Shown: positions 23,120 to 37,284 of the stretch, one piece after another
Layout: each line of letters begins with the position of its first letter
Position numbering within the stretch: the first letter of the stretch is position 1
Source: Cyanobacteria bacterium P01_A01_bin.123
Lineage (GTDB): Bacteria > Cyanobacteriota > Cyanobacteriia > Phormidesmidales > Phormidesmidaceae
Assembly (NCBI GenBank): GCA_039815185.1
Contig: JBCBZT010000061.1
Coordinates: 1 to 38,687, forward strand
Length of the DNA stretch: 38,687 nucleotides
Direction of reading: 5' to 3'
Position numbers and translations under genes: made by a program
The notes under the pieces: generated by a model
What the model saw: the letters and a program-made list of their open reading frames with translations, nothing else
Told to the model about the DNA's origin: nothing
The model's database searches: none

Positions 23120-24301
23120 TTGCCGTCTATGAATTCCAATCCCCTCAAGATTTCAGTTATTGCCCCAGATCTATCCGGAGGCGGTGTCGCCCGCGTCTAC
23201 CTTGTCGCCATCATGCTTCAACAATTGGGGCATCATGTCGAGGTCGTCGGCTGCCGCTCTGGCGAAAATATCTATCCGTCTCCCCCCGAAGGTCTCCCAG
23301 TTACAACCGTCCCCAGGAAAAAAATACCGGGATTTACTCAGTCTGTACTACAAGTGCTGGGCAAACTCCAAGGCGATATTATCTACGCGATCAAGCCTCG
23401 CCTAACCAGTCTCGGCATTGGCTATCTCAAACAGCGATTATCTGGAAGACCCTTACTCGTTGACATTGACGATTGGGAAATGAGTTGGGTTGGGGGCGAC
23501 AACTACCGCTATCATCCTAAATTCAAGGAGCTGGTGCGCGATATTTTGACGCCCGAAGGCAAGCTACGTAATCCAGAGCATCCCTTTTATGTGCAGCAGA
23601 TGGAATCTTGGGTCAAGCATGCTGATGCGGTTACGGTGACGACTCAGTTTTTGCAACGGCGCTTTGGTGGCTTCTATTTGCCCAATGGCAAAGATACCGA
23701 CTGTTTTGATCCGGCCCGCTTTGATCCTGAAGCCAGTCGTCAAAAGTATGGGCTTAGCGGCTACCGGGTACTCATGTTTCCCGGCACAGCTAGACCCCAC
23801 AAAGGTTTAGAAGATCTGTTGATTGCCTTAGAAAAGCTTAACCAAAGTGACCTCAAAGTCGTTATCGTGGGCGGAGATAAATTCGACGATTACGAAGATA
23901 AACTCCTGAAACGGTGGCAACCCTGGCTGATTAAGTTACCACGATTTTCTATGGCCGAGATGGCTGAAGTTGTCTCTGCTGCGCATGTTGTTGTCGTCCC
24001 CCAACGCGATACCCTAACAGCCTGTGCTCAGTTCCCCCTCAAGCTGGCTGATGGTATGGCCATGGCCAAACCGATTTTATCGACCCGGGTTGGTGATATC
24101 CCCGATATCTTAGGTGATGCAGGCTATCTGGTTGACCCTAGCAGCCCCGATCAAATTGCAGAGACTTTACCCAAAATCTTTGCCGATTTTGAGCAGGCAC
24201 AGCGCAAGGGTGAAGCAGCCCGTCAGCAATGCCTGCAAAACTACAGTACCCATGCGATGGGAAAAACTTTGTCGAAAATACTAGAACAATGGCAATCGTA
24301 G
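23120..24301 (+). CDS. Glycosyltransferase family 4 (GT-B fold)
   Basis: LSGGG N-terminal loop, FPGTARPHKG and FPLKLADGMAMAKPILSTRVGDIP. The start may be ATG 23129. Confidence 0.9.
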   Translation: MPSMNSNPLKISVIAPDLSGGGVARVYLVAIMLQQLGHHVEVVGCRSGENIYPSPPEGLPVTTVPRKKIPGFTQSVLQVLGKLQGDIIYAIKPRLTSLGIGYLKQRLSGRPLLVDIDDWEMSWVGGDNYRYHPKFKELVRDILTPEGKLRNPEHPFYVQQMESWVKHADAVTVTTQFLQRRFGGFYLPNGKDTDCFDPARFDPEASRQKYGLSGYRVLMFPGTARPHKGLEDLLIALEKLNQSDLKVVIVGGDKFDDYEDKLLKRWQPWLIKLPRFSMAEMAEVVSAAHVVVVPQRDTLTACAQFPLKLADGMAMAKPILSTRVGDIPDILGDAGYLVDPSSPDQIAETLPKIFADFEQAQRKGEAARQQCLQNYSTHAMGKTLSKILEQWQS

Positions 24302-24308
24302 TTGCACT

Positions 24309-26321
24309 ATGAAAACGTCCCCCAATCGACTGCTCCTGAGTTTTGCACTGAGACATCCCATCTGGATTATCCTAACCATCCTGTTGGGATTTTCGGGTGC
24401 GGTCTTTAATGGGGTCGGTGCCACTCTGATCATTCCAGTACTGCTGGAATTCCTAGGTCAATCACTGACTGAGGCAGATAACCTGCCGCCGATTCTAAGC
24501 CAATTTTTCAGCGTATTTGACGATATCCCCGAAGCCTATCGCATTAGCGTTATGTTGGGGGCCGTGTTCTTCACCATTGTGCTCAAGAATCTGGCTAACT
24601 ACGCCAGCATCATGGCTGGAGCTGCGTTAACACGAGCCCTCACGGTTGATATGCGAGATGAAGGCCTCCAGCTATTGCTAGAGGTAGATCTTGATTACCA
24701 CTTCAAAATGCGGGCTGGGGATATTATTCAGCGGCTCAACGACCAGGTCAGCCGCGCCACCACCGCCATCAAGACTTTGATAGAACTGGTGCGCGTGGGC
24801 CTCAATATCATCTTCTTCGTGGTTCTCTTGGTAAGTATCTCTTGGCAGTTGACCCTAACTGCAACGGTACTGTTCGGCATGATTATTGCGCTCAATCAGT
24901 TTGCAGTGAGCCGTTCCCGCCAATTTGGCCGCAATCTAGCTGATACGTCCAAAGCTTATTCCATTAGGGTTTTGGAGATGCTCAATGGGATGCGCTTGGT
25001 TAGATCGACGGCTAGCGAACCGCGAGAATATAAGCTCGTTCGACGGTTAATTCATGCCCGGGAGAAGGCATCATTTGATTCTCTGGCCAATTCCGCCTTA
25101 ATTACGCCCATCAATGAGATTGGCAGTATTTTGGCACTGATTTTGATGGTGATCATCAGCCGGGGTCTATTTTCAGATCGACTCGATACGCTGGCCACGA
25201 TTTTATTGACCTATTTGTTTGTGCTATCCCGCATGATTCCGTTTTTAGGGCAACTTAACGGGGCTCGGGGACGATTTGCCAACAATGCAGCCAGTGTGGA
25301 ATACGTCTACGATTTTTTGCGCCGTGACAATAAATCCTTTATGAAAAAGGGCACGGTGCCGTTTTCCCATCTGGCTGAGGGGATTCGGTTTGAAAATTTG
25401 TCTTTTACCTATCCTGGCACTGAGACTCCAGTGCTAAAGCAGGTTGATTTGTATTTACCCAGGGGAACAACCCTGGCTTTAGTGGGGGCTTCAGGGGCGG
25501 GTAAATCAACCCTGGCTGATTTGCTACCTCGCTTTTATGACTTAGATGGGGGTCGCATTTCCATCGATGGCAAAGACCTGAGAGACTACGACATTAGCTC
25601 CCTACGGCGGCAGATGGGCATTGTCAGCCAAGATACGTTTTTGTTTAACATGTCGATTCGGGATAACATTGCCTACGCCCGACCAGGTGCTTCCGATGAC
25701 CAAATCATTGATGCGGCAAAACGAGCTAATGCCTATGAGTTTGTTGCCAGGATGCCGCAAGGGCTAGATACGCTGATTGGCGATCGCGGCGTGTTGCTCT
25801 CTGGGGGGCAGCGTCAACGGTTGGCGATTGCCCGGGCATTGCTGCAAGACCCCGACATTTTGATCTTAGATGAAGCGACTAGTGCCTTAGATACGGTGTC
25901 AGAACGGCTAGTCCAGAAAGCGCTAGATGATCTCAGTCGCGATCGCACTACCCTGGTGATCGCCCACCGCCTCTCTACCATTCAAGAAGCCGATCAAATT
26001 GCCGTTCTCGGTGCTGGGGAAGTTTTGGAAGTTGGAAATCACAGAGACTTGATCCGGCGCGGTGGAGCCTATAAAAATCTCTACTCCATGCAATTTAGTG
26101 AAACCACTAAACAGATTATCAAAGCAGCCAAAAATGAAAGCTTAACCAAGGTTTCTTATGAGGTACGTAATAATCTAAATACAATCTTAGGCTCGCTGCA
26201 GCTCTTGGCCGATGGGTTTGTCGATGATGTTGAAGAACAGCGAGAACTAACCCTAGAAGCTTATCAATCTGCCCTGGTGCTTCTAGAGCGGTTGAAAAGC
26301 AACGAAGATGATGTCCAATGA
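24309..26321 (+). CDS. ABC exporter (permease + ATPase, HepA/MsbA-like) with a C-terminal HisKA-like extension
   Basis: N-terminal transmembrane domain, GASGAGKST, LSGGQRQR, LILDEATSALD and IAHRLST, followed by an extra ~70-aa tail. Confidence 0.93.
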   Translation: MKTSPNRLLLSFALRHPIWIILTILLGFSGAVFNGVGATLIIPVLLEFLGQSLTEADNLPPILSQFFSVFDDIPEAYRISVMLGAVFFTIVLKNLANYASIMAGAALTRALTVDMRDEGLQLLLEVDLDYHFKMRAGDIIQRLNDQVSRATTAIKTLIELVRVGLNIIFFVVLLVSISWQLTLTATVLFGMIIALNQFAVSRSRQFGRNLADTSKAYSIRVLEMLNGMRLVRSTASEPREYKLVRRLIHAREKASFDSLANSALITPINEIGSILALILMVIISRGLFSDRLDTLATILLTYLFVLSRMIPFLGQLNGARGRFANNAASVEYVYDFLRRDNKSFMKKGTVPFSHLAEGIRFENLSFTYPGTETPVLKQVDLYLPRGTTLALVGASGAGKSTLADLLPRFYDLDGGRISIDGKDLRDYDISSLRRQMGIVSQDTFLFNMSIRDNIAYARPGASDDQIIDAAKRANAYEFVARMPQGLDTLIGDRGVLLSGGQRQRLAIARALLQDPDILILDEATSALDTVSERLVQKALDDLSRDRTTLVIAHRLSTIQEADQIAVLGAGEVLEVGNHRDLIRRGGAYKNLYSMQFSETTKQIIKAAKNESLTKVSYEVRNNLNTILGSLQLLADGFVDDVEEQRELTLEAYQSALVLLERLKSNEDDVQ

Positions 26322-31775: not shown

Positions 31776-32471
31776 CTAATCCGTTAGCCGAGCCTTACGG
31801 ATTGTTCCCGGTAAAACGCCGACTAACAAAGCAAACGCTTCGTCGGGCACCCGTTCAATAATGCGATTGTCAAAATAACTCTTAAACTGCTCTAAAATCA
31901 TCCGGGCTCGCTGCGCTGGCACTGCCTGATCAGTAAAATTTTGGGTCAGCCGAATCCACTGCAACCGAATCTTCAAGGCTTTTTGCTGTTCCTCATGGGA
32001 CTCAGGAGCGACTAACGATAAATTCCCTAACGGAATCACCCGCCGGCATCCTTGATCGAACACACCGCCGACAGCAGCCCCTGGCCCCGCAAACTCCGCA
32101 TGAAATCCTTTGAAGATGATTAAGCCATTGCGGCGGCGACTATTAACCACCCACAGCTTGCCGCTGTTGATCTGGGTAAACGTTTCAGTAGCCTCCAATT
32201 GCTGATTCACAGAATGATGAATTATGTTGCCTTCGCGATGAGTAGGGGGAGACTCAGTTCCCGTTACAGGGGCATTAATCTGGATGAGATCAGCCTGATT
32301 CAGGGTTTGAGCGTAGGGTTCGGACGCAAGTTGTCGAGTTAGCCCGACTGGCGTAGCAGTCTTCGTAAGCTTAGCGGAGCCTCCAGATTTAACATCCCAA
32401 ATTTTAGGGGATTGCTCTGACATGTGCTTACTCGTTTGGCTAGAACTTCTTAAGGACGCCATAAAGATCAA
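31776..32471 (-). CDS. Conserved hypothetical protein, possibly a degenerate Crp/Fnr-type HTH protein
   Basis: Long ORF with a low-complexity N-terminus, an AEFAGPGAAVGG core and a C-terminal QRARMIL...DEAFALLVGVLPGTIR. The start is uncertain (TTG 32471 or ATG 32462). Confidence 0.7.
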   Translation of the reverse strand: MIFMASLRSSSQTSKHMSEQSPKIWDVKSGGSAKLTKTATPVGLTRQLASEPYAQTLNQADLIQINAPVTGTESPPTHREGNIIHHSVNQQLEATETFTQINSGKLWVVNSRRRNGLIIFKGFHAEFAGPGAAVGGVFDQGCRRVIPLGNLSLVAPESHEEQQKALKIRLQWIRLTQNFTDQAVPAQRARMILEQFKSYFDNRIIERVPDEAFALLVGVLPGTIRKARLTD

Positions 32472-33744: not shown

Positions 33745-36700
33745 ATGGTCATTTCAGAACATAGTCGATCCAGTCGCGAATCTAAACCGAAGATTCTGGT
33801 TGTCGATGATGAACCAGACAATCTCGATCTGCTTTATCGTACTTTTTACCGGGAGTTTCGGGTTTTACGTGCCCAAGATGGTCCCAGTGCCCTTAAGCTC
33901 TTGGCGGAACAAAGCGGCATTGCGGTCATTATCTCTGACCAGCGGATGCCGGGGATGAGCGGTACTGAGCTGCTTCGGCAAACGGCAATTCAGTATCCCA
34001 ATATTATTCGGATTATTCTCACGGGGTACACCGACGTTGAGGACTTGGTTGAGGCAATCAACGCTGGGAAGGTATTTAAGTATGTCACTAAGCCATGGGA
34101 TGAAGATGATCTCAAAGCGGTGGTTCGCCAAGCCGTAGAAACTCACAAAGTATTGAAGGCACGCACTGAAGATCTCAGCCGGATTCTGCGTCAAGAATCT
34201 TTGCTGAATGCGGTAACTAATACGATCCGAGGGGCCAAGAGTTCCCAGCAAATGTTGCAGACCATTGTCGATACCATCGGCCCCATGCTTGAGGTGCACA
34301 TTGGCATTGTGCAGGCATTCCAAACCGAGGGGGGGGAGGCCTATTTTGTCTTTCAAAGTGAGACCAGTGGGGAAGAAGCTGCATCTGTCTTACCCCTAAA
34401 AATGCTGCAACAGACTGTTTGGGAAACTCGCGAAGTTGAAGTCATTGAACAGATCGAAGAGAGCGCTACAGGCCCTTTTCTGTCGGGGGATCCGAGGCTG
34501 GCAGCCTTACAGGCAGTCGACATCCAATCTACCCTGGTCATTCCGATTCAATTTAAACAGGACTTGATTGCTGTACTTGCCCTGCATCAACGGCACCAGC
34601 CTCGATCTTGGAAGGGAGAAGAAGTGCAGTTGCTCCTAACCATGGCAGATCAAGCGGCGTTGGCCTTTTCCCAAATTTCCACCTATGAGAAGGTACAGGC
34701 TTTGGCCAAGCGTGAGGTGTTAATCAACACGATCACCCAGTCGATTCGCTCTAGCCTAAACCCCCAGGAGATTTTTGCCGCGATTACGCAAAAGCTGGGC
34801 CAAGCTCTGCGGACTGATAGTTGTGCCCTCTCACTTTGGACAGAGGACGATGAGTTTGTCCTGTGTGTGGGGCTACATACTTCGGCTGAAGCCACCTTTG
34901 GCGGGAATCGGCTAAGCCAGGAAGGGGGCAATGGCGCAGGATCACAGGCCAGTGCTGCGACTACCCTTGCGGCAAAGACGTTGGATGGGGCAGCGTTCCC
35001 CCAAACTCCACGTTCCCAAGTCCCCATTGCTGGCAATCCGGTGTTGCAACAGCTGTTGGCAACCCAACAACCCGTCGTAATTGATGATTTAGATCAGCAT
35101 CCAGAATTGGCGGTGCAGGATATTCCCATGCGATCGCCAGCTAAAGCGCTCCTGATCGTACCGCTGATTGTTGATCAGCAAATTATCGGCAGTATTTCGC
35201 TCAGGCAAACCCAGCGATCGCGTCATTGGCGAATTGATGAAGTTGAACTAGCTCAGGCAGTCGCCTCGCAAGCAGCGTTGGCGGTGCAGCAGGCACGCCT
35301 TTATCAAAAGACACGGCAACAAGCCGAACAGCTTTTAGAGCTGGATAAGCAAAAGACCGAATTTTTTCAAAATATCTCCCACGAATTTCGCACCCCGCTC
35401 ACCTTGACGATTGGCCCTTTAGAATCGGCGGTACATCGCCAAGAGGGGCTCGACTATGACCAAGCGGTGATTGCTTTACGGAACTCCCGGCGGTTGTTGC
35501 GGTTAGTAAATCAACTGCTAGATTTGCAGCGGCTTGATGCGGGGCGCATGCAGCCGACTTTTCGCAGCTGTGATCCGGTGGAATTCATCACGGAGATTGT
35601 GGAGGCGTTTCGACCCTATTGCGATCGCAAACAATTAAACCTGATTACCCATCTCAGTCCTTCTGAACCGCTATATCTCGATTTTGAAAAGTTTGACAAG
35701 GTACTTTACAACTTGCTCTCCAATGCCATGAAATTTACGGCGGCAGGGGGCACAATCACCATAAGGCTAACAACAGCGGGCGATCGTTGTGTTATCGAGG
35801 TTCAAGATACAGGAATTGGCATCCGCGAAGACCAATTGGTTCATCTATTTGAACGGTTTCGACAAGCCGATGGCTCTACCAACCGCAGCTATGAAGGGAC
35901 GGGCTTAGGGCTGGCCCTGGTGAAAGAACTGGTAGAACTTCACGGGGGAGACGTCATCGTTGACTCAGAATATGGCCAAGGAACAACCTTTCGACTCACC
36001 ATTCCCTTTGGCAGCAGCCACCTACCCGCTAACGCAGTTGTGGAAGAGGCCGCCAAGATTGAAGGGCAGCGGGCAGCCGTTGAACTCGCTGATATCGAAA
36101 CTATTGCCGCAAACCCAGCCCAGATTCCCACCGAACTGCCCCCGATGATCCAGGGTTCAAACCAGACCCCAGTGGACAATCACCATGCCCACATCCTGGT
36201 GGTGGATGATAATCCCGATTTGCGCGCCTATCTCTCCAGCATTTTGCAGCGAGAAGGTTATCAGGTACGCACCGCCTACAACGGGGCCATGGGTTGGGAA
36301 CTGACCGAGACCTATCATCCCGAATTGATCATTACTGATTTGATGATGCCAGGGGTGTCTGGGTTGGAGCTGATTCAGCGAATTCGTCTGGATGCAAAAC
36401 TGCAAGGCATTCCGGTAATTTTGTTGACGGCAAAGGTTGATGATGAAACTCGACTTGAAGGAGTTGAACAGGGAGCGGATGCTTATCTGTCTAAGCCGTT
36501 TAACGACCGCGAACTCTTGGCCGAGGTACGTAATCTATTGGCTCTGAAGGCGAATGAACGGCGGGTTGAGGAATTGAATACTTACTTGACGGAGTCAGTG
36601 CTCCATCGATTTTTACCCGCGAGTCTAGTGAAAAAAGCAGCCCAAGGCGAACTCCAGCTAGATCTGCGTCCAGAACCCCGGTTAATCACGATCGTCTTTA

Positions 36701-37284
36701 GCGACATTATTGGCTTTACAGAGCTTTCTAATCTGTTGAAATCGCGCCGGGTCGCTGAACTGCTCAACGAATATCTTGCGGCCATGACCGAAGCCATTTT
36801 CACAAATGGTGGAACAGTCGATAAATTTATGGGCGACGCTGTGTTGGCACTGTTTGGCGCTCCTGAAGAGCTAACGCCAGAGGCCCAAGCCCGACAAGCG
36901 ATCGCAGCAGCCCGACAGATGTATCAAAAACTCGATGAACTGAATCAACGCTGGCAAGCCCAAGGCATTGGGCCAGTCCAGTTTCGCTGCGGTATTCACC
37001 AAGGCACCGCCGTGGTGGGGATGTTTGGCAACGATGAGCGGGCTGACTACACCGCCATTGGCCCCAGCGTTAACGTAGCAGCTCGTCTCCAAGATGCCGC
37101 TAGTGCAGATTGCATTTTGGTTTCAGAAGCCATTGCCCGACATTTACCCCCCGATGAAGTAGAACAATTTGGTTCTGTCAATCTCAAAGGCATTGACGAG
37201 GCTGTGTCTACCTACGGCATTCGCATTCACCATTCTCAACCAATTACTGCGCCGCCCACCGCCGAGCCCTCCGGACAGCCATAA
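33745..37284 (+). CDS. cyaC: Hybrid adenylate cyclase CyaC (REC-GAF-GAF-HisKA-HATPase-REC-class III cyclase)
   Basis: VVDDEP..SDQRMP receiver, SHEFRTPL H-box, NLLSNAMKF and GTGLGL, a second receiver TDLMMP, and the FSDIIGFT..DKFMGD..YTAIG..VNVAARL cyclase with ATP-specifying K/T. Confidence 0.95.
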   Translation: MVISEHSRSSRESKPKILVVDDEPDNLDLLYRTFYREFRVLRAQDGPSALKLLAEQSGIAVIISDQRMPGMSGTELLRQTAIQYPNIIRIILTGYTDVEDLVEAINAGKVFKYVTKPWDEDDLKAVVRQAVETHKVLKARTEDLSRILRQESLLNAVTNTIRGAKSSQQMLQTIVDTIGPMLEVHIGIVQAFQTEGGEAYFVFQSETSGEEAASVLPLKMLQQTVWETREVEVIEQIEESATGPFLSGDPRLAALQAVDIQSTLVIPIQFKQDLIAVLALHQRHQPRSWKGEEVQLLLTMADQAALAFSQISTYEKVQALAKREVLINTITQSIRSSLNPQEIFAAITQKLGQALRTDSCALSLWTEDDEFVLCVGLHTSAEATFGGNRLSQEGGNGAGSQASAATTLAAKTLDGAAFPQTPRSQVPIAGNPVLQQLLATQQPVVIDDLDQHPELAVQDIPMRSPAKALLIVPLIVDQQIIGSISLRQTQRSRHWRIDEVELAQAVASQAALAVQQARLYQKTRQQAEQLLELDKQKTEFFQNISHEFRTPLTLTIGPLESAVHRQEGLDYDQAVIALRNSRRLLRLVNQLLDLQRLDAGRMQPTFRSCDPVEFITEIVEAFRPYCDRKQLNLITHLSPSEPLYLDFEKFDKVLYNLLSNAMKFTAAGGTITIRLTTAGDRCVIEVQDTGIGIREDQLVHLFERFRQADGSTNRSYEGTGLGLALVKELVELHGGDVIVDSEYGQGTTFRLTIPFGSSHLPANAVVEEAAKIEGQRAAVELADIETIAANPAQIPTELPPMIQGSNQTPVDNHHAHILVVDDNPDLRAYLSSILQREGYQVRTAYNGAMGWELTETYHPELIITDLMMPGVSGLELIQRIRLDAKLQGIPVILLTAKVDDETRLEGVEQGADAYLSKPFNDRELLAEVRNLLALKANERRVEELNTYLTESVLHRFLPASLVKKAAQGELQLDLRPEPRLITIVFSDIIGFTELSNLLKSRRVAELLNEYLAAMTEAIFTNGGTVDKFMGDAVLALFGAPEELTPEAQARQAIAAARQMYQKLDELNQRWQAQGIGPVQFRCGIHQGTAVVGMFGNDERADYTAIGPSVNVAARLQDAASADCILVSEAIARHLPPDEVEQFGSVNLKGIDEAVSTYGIRIHHSQPITAPPTAEPSGQP

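Follow-up and report, generated by a model that had tools for sequence, protein, structure and literature searches.

A conserved kinase-derived hairpin without its phospho-acceptor histidine on a predicted cyanobacterial glycan exporter: a candidate docking site for a DevR-like regulator

What is a hairpin resembling part of a histidine kinase doing at the end of an ABC exporter? The question is raised by a 38,687-nucleotide stretch of DNA from Cyanobacteria bacterium P01_A01_bin.123, the whole of which is called the window here and which encodes on its forward strand a 670-residue protein (24309-26321) composed of a membrane domain, an ATPase domain and a C-terminal tail. The membrane domain (ABC_membrane, PF00664, residues 41-290, 24429..25178; Pfam E 3.3e-16) precedes the ATP-binding core (ABC_tran, PF00005, residues 376-525, 25434..25883; Pfam E 4.1e-34), and a motif scan found the Walker A (393), Q-loop (439), signature (497), Walker B (517), D-loop (525) and H-switch (552) motifs intact. 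By its domains and intact motifs, the protein belongs to the fused single-chain membrane plus ATPase type of exporters (MsbA/HepA/PglK). Its best NCBIfam match is HepA_fam_ABC at 538 bits, below the cut-off of 725 bits (NF045513), and two related exporters, at 580 and 554 bits, also stay below it.

The exporter gene starts 7 bp downstream of the end of a gene for a 393-residue GT4 glycosyltransferase on the same strand (23120..24301; Pfam Glycos_transf_1, E 4.8e-20). GT4 is the most constant neighbor of the exporter: in four locus sets, a homologue with at least 40% identity was found within the fetched flanks of 22/28, 14/16, 54/58 and 21/29 loci. The exporter neighbors in relatives also include GT10 and genes of the Npun_R2821/R2822 families, the GT10 homologue of the genome studied here being located on a different contig from the exporter. 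Glycan export is thus predicted for the pump from its exporter family and neighboring genes, and the HepA-like body, together with the GT4, GT10 and Npun_R2821/R2822-family neighbors in relatives, suggests that the cargo would be a lipid-linked glycan. Of 16 wide loci (L034-L050), 15 have a glyoxalase II gene (gloB) in the vicinity of the GT4 and exporter genes; in the present genome it is on a different contig. Promoter and terminator scans gave counts at chance level. Elsewhere in the window, a reverse-strand open reading frame for 231 amino acids (31776-32471) has no Pfam match at E 0.1.

A sequence-only reading of this locus proposed that about 70 residues beyond the end of the ATPase domain follow the H-box hairpin pattern of histidine kinases. 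The stretch quoted there was found letter for letter, and 74 residues (597-670; 26097-26318, forward strand) follow the end of the ATPase domain at ...YSMQF596. In a Pfam search with the full protein, residues 608-657 match HisKA (PF00512) at E 1e-4, and their score of 22.7 bits does not reach the curated cut-off of 26.9; the profile check proposed by that reading, run with the tail alone, gave E 2.8e-5 and 24.5 bits, again below this cut-off. HisKA in a CyaC-like open reading frame of the window (33745-37284) scores above the Pfam cut-off. The top Atlas matches of the tail are HisKA (score 0.93), and its closest non-self match in its own genome is a true kinase's domain for dimerization and histidine phosphotransfer (DHp; E 3.3e-9). 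Judged from these matches, the resemblance of the tail to HisKA exceeds chance. The tail nevertheless lacks the marks of a HisKA kinase: the phospho-acceptor His, the Pro at H+5 (five residues after the His position) and the HATPase_c domain are all missing. In alignment with kinase DHp domains, the His position is occupied by Tyr617, whose TAT codon was verified at 26157-26159, and no Pfam match to HATPase_c follows the tail, which is directly ended by the stop codon. The tail DNA (26097-26321) has 41.8% G+C compared with 49.9% in the remaining gene, possibly owing to amino-acid composition.

The two-helix hairpin expected for a DHp was recovered as a prediction by AlphaFold2. In the model of the exporter, built with 53 sequences (pLDDT 83.6, pTM 0.71), a helix at 587-634 is continuous with the last ATPase helix and is followed by a loop at 635-640 and a second helix at 641-669. 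The pLDDT values are 73-86 across residues 611-670 and below 50 at the joint (598-602), where the model is hence uncertain.

Far from being unique to one strain, the tail is kept in 57 of 63 exporter orthologues from 151 cyanobacterial genomes. The whole-protein search in these 151 genomes of the class yielded 62 orthologues with at least 655 bits, of which 56 have the tail, five (all from family f15) stop right behind the ATPase domain and one is cut by a contig end; one extra genome, with a match at only 414 bits, was excluded as carrying a paralogue. A re-search with the membrane domain in 60 of the remaining 89 genomes added one tailed exporter (genome G017). Six more distant paralogues are without the tail. 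When 301 genomes were searched with the tail, all 29 top non-self loci were ABC fusions. In a scan of named genomes, for which the query contained the tail and was therefore biased towards tailed loci, all 58 loci matching into the tail carry it and none of the 22 non-cyanobacterial loci does. With residues 590-670 as the query, a word-based search for homologues returned only three proteins, which the whole-genome searches indicate to be a sensitivity limit. The f15 loci in question are L184, L188, L190, L214, L215 and L170, with tail loss in five genomes. The 90% cluster of a 748-residue exporter also contains unrelated proteins of 36-53 residues, an oddity of database clustering.

In families f7 and f26, two tails are present in tandem (L195:2779-3222, L042:7731-8189, L181:1240-1695 and L271:6335-6787); the second copy retains the Tyr motif in f26 and has lost it in f7. 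For the f26 tandem of L195, with 20 such sequences, the four helices are predicted to form one four-helix bundle (pTM 0.84). A Foldseek search with this model gave no match at E <=0.001, and the VIA fold search returned generic four-helix bundles and no DHp chain (best 6egc_A, Z 16.4, rmsd 2.6, 139 residues aligned); the absence of a DHp chain is uninformative here, because DHp bundles consist of two chains. In six f26 paralogues (L219-L224, second copies), an insert separates the ATPase domain from a Tyr-bearing pseudo-DHp, and in all three that were scanned it matches ComFB, a c-di-NMP receptor, above the cut-off.

Is the missing histidine a sign of decay? The survey of His versus Tyr in homologues, also suggested by the sequence-only reading, showed Tyr in 45, His in 9, Phe in one and Lys in one of the 56 orthologous tails. 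That reading remarked that the Tyr617 codon lies one base from CAT, which is true of the codon; as a mark of recent decay it fails, because the relatives use both Tyr codons (TAC in 31 and TAT in 20 sequences, six paralogues included). Pooled over 16 close pairs, dN/dS amounts to 0.101 in the tail, as against 0.112 in the membrane domain and 0.067 in the ATPase domain, the pairs being hand-picked and their synonymous sites near saturation; in three of the 16 pairs the tail identity is just 53-58%. The tail is under purifying selection, like the membrane domain, and is an old, selected pseudo-DHp. Conservation, codon use and dN/dS led us to reject the idea that a kinase fusion has recently decayed in this strain alone.

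The same data bear on whether the tail itself accepts phosphate, on Tyr or, in the His variants, on His, or is a neutral remnant, a pair of options to which we give hardly any credence. The nine His-bearing tails and the His-Glu pairs in several f7 loci would fit a phospho-acceptor. However, only one of these nine tails has the acid at H+1 and none has the Pro at H+5, which is absent from all 56 tails (0/56 vs 48/48 for the kinase K1 described below). In a quick 74-row tree built from the exporter body without the tail, the His state requires six changes, five of them forced by starred branches, in agreement with repeated one-base swaps between Tyr and His. The neutral remnant is excluded by the dN/dS value of 0.10.

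From which kinase did the hairpin come? The closest true kinase in the genome, the search for which had also been recommended, is K1, a soluble GAF kinase whose DHp is the match at E 3.3e-9; it is followed by the small kinase K3 and the membrane kinase K2. In a tree of DHp domains (96 rows and 62 columns, a shortness that restricts its resolution), the 26 tails sampled fall into a single clade (100/100) within a group containing K1, K2 and K3 (98/67) and separate from 47 other kinases, so that the tails are placed among true DHp domains. In named NCBIfam models, neither K1-K3 nor the lone receiver described below had a match above the cut-off, and cluster look-ups gave generic names only, with the exception of DivK. 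Names from Anabaena were assigned from supplementary file 1 of PMC3141674, by matching its rows in gene order and length and not by sequence comparison; the regions in that file are padded by about 100 bp (the alr0584 start is 679827 there vs 679928 in PMC2211374). On this basis, K3 corresponds to alr0117 (hepN), a 305-residue product encoded after alr0116 and overlapping by about 38 bp the gene for the 156-residue All0118, as in L146; K1 corresponds to alr1308 (585 residues, followed by a 744-residue gene product, as in L261/L263); K2 corresponds by length alone to all0330; and the exporter corresponds to alr0583 (746 residues, followed by a 400-residue GT4 and with a glyoxalase II gene nearby, as in L271). 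The tree thus shows that the tail descends from the Alr1308/All0330/HepN kinase clade, these names being given by gene order and length. An identity of K1 with HepK was ruled out, since K1, a soluble GAF kinase, corresponds to Alr1308, and another kinase, that of L152, is a better fit to the 575 residues of HepK.

Several observations concern the donor clade more widely. K1 (L031, L231-L280) is very conserved and single-copy in nearly all genomes having it, lepA adjoins it in 34 of 49 loci, and alr1308 is mentioned in one paper of the literature searched. Five non-ABC proteins (P0109, P0117, P0134, P0124 and P0158) carry one or two His-less DHp domains of the same clade, in one case behind a GAF-like region, which suggests that the DHp of this clade was disarmed on more than one occasion. 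The 556-residue P0140 contains many repeated DHp-like hairpins with Phe at the His position.

This ancestry raises the possibility of a mixed four-helix bundle between the tail and the DHp of K1 (Alr1308), K2 or HepN, in which the tail would tether or inhibit the kinase and the state of the exporter would feed back on signaling, as in RetS-GacS. The core residues of the tails closely match those of K1, K3 is present in all tail genomes and K1 in all but G320 (whole-protein search set, compared by eye), and HepN is reported to regulate hepA and hepB expression (bioRxiv 10.64898/2026.04.08.717354). DHp-DHp heterodimers exist and block autophosphorylation (PMC8498467), and the RetS-GacS system provides a precedent for pairing with the DHp of another kinase, although both of its partners are full kinases and no transporter is involved. 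With regard to structure, the best PDB match of the tail sequence is 7n0e_A (E 1.5e-4), which we take to be the GacS DHp of the RetS-GacS heterodimer. On the other hand, in a homodimeric exporter the second subunit already provides a hairpin at high local concentration, the tandem tails are predicted to complete a bundle within a single chain, and the tail is kept in G320, where K1 was not found. We regard pairing with a kinase as rather improbable.

Which surface has been kept? Arg620 (H+3; 26166..26168, forward strand) is the sole invariant residue (56/56 tails), and Asn H+7 (43/56), Gly H+11 (53/56), Leu H+15 (47/56), Asp/Glu H+18 (51/56) and Glu H+26 (54/56) are also kept; all six are kept in K1 too and are assumed here, by DHp convention, to face the regulator. 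None of the 44 other kinases of the genome has all six together. Arg H+3, Asn H+7 and Gly H+11 occur in 44, 27 and 35 of these 44 kinases, respectively, and may be structural, being general HisKA features; Asp/Glu H+18 and Glu H+26 are marks of the clade, found in 10 and 5 of the 44. Tail positions H+3, H+7 and H+12 correspond to R553, T557 and Y562 of DivL (PMC4211667), a protein considered below.

Other positions behave differently, and they bear on the view that the tail is a structural module, either a latch zipping the ATPase domains together or a platform for GT4 or another non-signaling partner, with its ancestry incidental. The hydrophobic core is among the best-kept parts of the tail (Leu H+6 in 55/56, Leu H+13 in 54/56 and Leu H+42 in 50/56), the specificity positions H+8, H+12 and H+14, fixed in K1, drift in the tails, and new conserved Glu residues differing from K1 at H+46 (47/56) and H+49 (53/56) point to a new contact. 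The constancy of GT4 as a neighbor and the five f15 genomes that lost the tail and kept the exporter agree with such a module as well. Yet in one of these tail-less genomes, G248 (L314), GT4 is still encoded beside the exporter, and its adjacency therefore needs no tail. A latch would not obviously explain an invariant Arg and a Tyr kept through both codons, and the intramolecular tandem bundles of f7 and f26 would abolish a latch between subunits. Taken together, a structural module appears unlikely, yet worth keeping in view.

The DHp phosphatase motif E/D-x-x-T/N can act without kinase activity, and the window protein contains it as Glu618 and Asn621. The tail could accordingly be imagined as a dedicated phosphatase of phosphorylated DevR (DevR~P), a role that we consider very improbable. 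An acid is present at H+1 in 38/56 tails and Thr/Asn at H+4 in 33/56, but the two residues occur jointly in just 21/56 tails vs 48/48 K1 kinases, and DivL, with the same Tyr, has no phosphatase activity (PMC4211667).

If the tail is a docking surface, what would dock? The candidate is a 134-residue lone receiver encoded elsewhere in the same genome (G000:C121:52259-52660), which we take to be DevR. By gene order and length it corresponds to devR/alr0442 (134 residues): in 29 of 30 loci the receiver has a gyrA-like gene as its neighbor, divergent in the present genome, which parallels the position of all0441 next to devR. Members of the receiver cluster are annotated as DivK. The receiver is found in 97 of 151 genomes. 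K1 is found at E 1e-75 in 101, or in 97 after removal of four hybrids of 1370 residues (~260 bits), and both are present together in 96 of the 98 genomes having either (tables compared by eye). K3 occurs in 83 of the 151 genomes, in the same families as the receiver and K1. The absences follow whole families: f18, f19, f21, f40, f47 and f51 are without both K1 and the receiver, and the co-distribution therefore rests on few independent events.

With respect to the exporter, the receiver was found in each of the 57 genomes with a tail; a single exporter genome, G248, is without it, and there the tail has been lost. Four of the five genomes with tail-less exporters retain the receiver, and 35 genomes have the receiver without the exporter. 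The receiver gene adjoins the exporter gene in G362 and G339, an adjacency seen in a single genus and missing in G325 of that genus. In f15, the sister genome G401 retains a divergent His tail and has the DevR-like receiver in two copies.

In Anabaena, HepN and HepK-DevR have been tied to envelope polysaccharide, HepK is the reported kinase of DevR, and the function of DevR is called unclear owing to its lack of an output domain (bioRxiv 10.64898/2026.04.08.717354). At 12 h of nitrogen step-down, devR and alr0117 rise about threefold and hepA goes from 0 to 18.8 RPKM, whereas alr0583 stays at 2.3-3.6 RPKM throughout and is therefore not heterocyst-specific (PMC3141674). The likely orthologue of HepK falls outside the donor clade of the tail. 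We found no published link of HepK-DevR/HepN signaling to alr0583 in the literature searched.

The closest functional parallel is provided by DivL of Caulobacter crescentus, which has Tyr550 at the His position and no kinase or phosphatase activity and binds DivK~P, for which it requires Arg553 at H+3 (PMC4211667). The exporter tail has the same Tyr and the same Arg at H+3, no kinase activity is expected of it, and the partner proposed for it, a lone receiver, likewise bears the label DivK in databases. In contrast to the exporter tail, DivL retains PAS and CA domains and exerts control over the kinase CckA, and phospho-specific binding also involves a PAS domain of DivL (PMC4211667). The exporter tail consists of the hairpin only, has no Pro at H+5, is derived from a clade of cyanobacterial kinases and forms part of a transporter; binding has been shown for DivL alone.

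We propose as the leading explanation, with a confidence just short of even, that the tail is a candidate DivL-like pseudo-DHp which would dock DevR~P and tune the predicted glycan export. In this mechanism, the two tails of an exporter homodimer would form a DHp four-helix bundle, and the donor kinases would have DevR as their cognate regulator. DevR~P would bind the tail bundle in the manner in which DivL is bound by DivK~P, with no phosphotransfer involved. Its binding would alter closure of the ATPase domains, and hence export, through the continuous helix, with lipid-linked oligosaccharide made by GT4 and the neighboring transferases as the putative cargo. The drift at H+8, H+12 and H+14, the position of HepK outside the donor clade and the lack of a PAS domain in the exporter count against DevR docking. 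A broader version, which we put forward more tentatively, is that a lone DHp hairpin from the HepN/Alr1308 clade could make a glycan exporter a direct output of two-component signaling, gated by DevR~P and, in one lineage, receiving a second input through ComFB. The dead docking module suggested by the sequence-only reading stands in so far as the tail is a conserved DHp derivative without His and ATPase; its suggested link to a two-component pathway is supported indirectly, by the donor clade and the co-distributed receiver.

Other known systems share single features with this one. Like HepA (Alr2835), the heterocyst polysaccharide exporter, the protein combines a membrane domain and an ATPase in one chain and has glycosyltransferase neighbors; unlike HepA, it reaches a score of only 538 bits, below the threshold of 725, and the HepA model stops at residue 596, before the tail. 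The HepK-DevR/HepN signaling of Anabaena PCC 7120 is paralleled by the donor clade, which includes HepN (K3), and by the receiver, which matches DevR in gene order and length, but a HepK-like kinase lies outside the clade from which the tail came. The ComFB insert of the f26 paralogues resembles a ComFB-ABC transporter fusion of Limnothrix, whereas the window exporter has no ComFB; this fusion is noted in the main text of bioRxiv 10.1101/2024.11.10.622515, from which the term "HisKA" is absent. In the literature searched, whose coverage excluded most subscription journals, no account of a fusion of an exporter with a pseudo-DHp was found, nor any mention of alr0583 or Npun_R2821/R2823/R2824. 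The domain fusion is real and widespread and appears to be unpublished, and the tailed exporter is best regarded as neither a kinase, a DivL nor a HepA, though one that would work like DivL.

DevR has been linked to heterocyst envelope polysaccharide for two decades, and the fusion gives it a concrete candidate target, alr0583, in a model strain. If the structural alternative is right, the tail would represent an accessory domain that is conserved and unannotated, and its interest would be moderate. If DevR~P docks on the tail as proposed, a phosphoregulator-gated ABC exporter would supply the missing target of DevR: a response regulator would control an ABC exporter directly, by way of a disarmed kinase domain, and the DivL principle would have been reused in another phylum.
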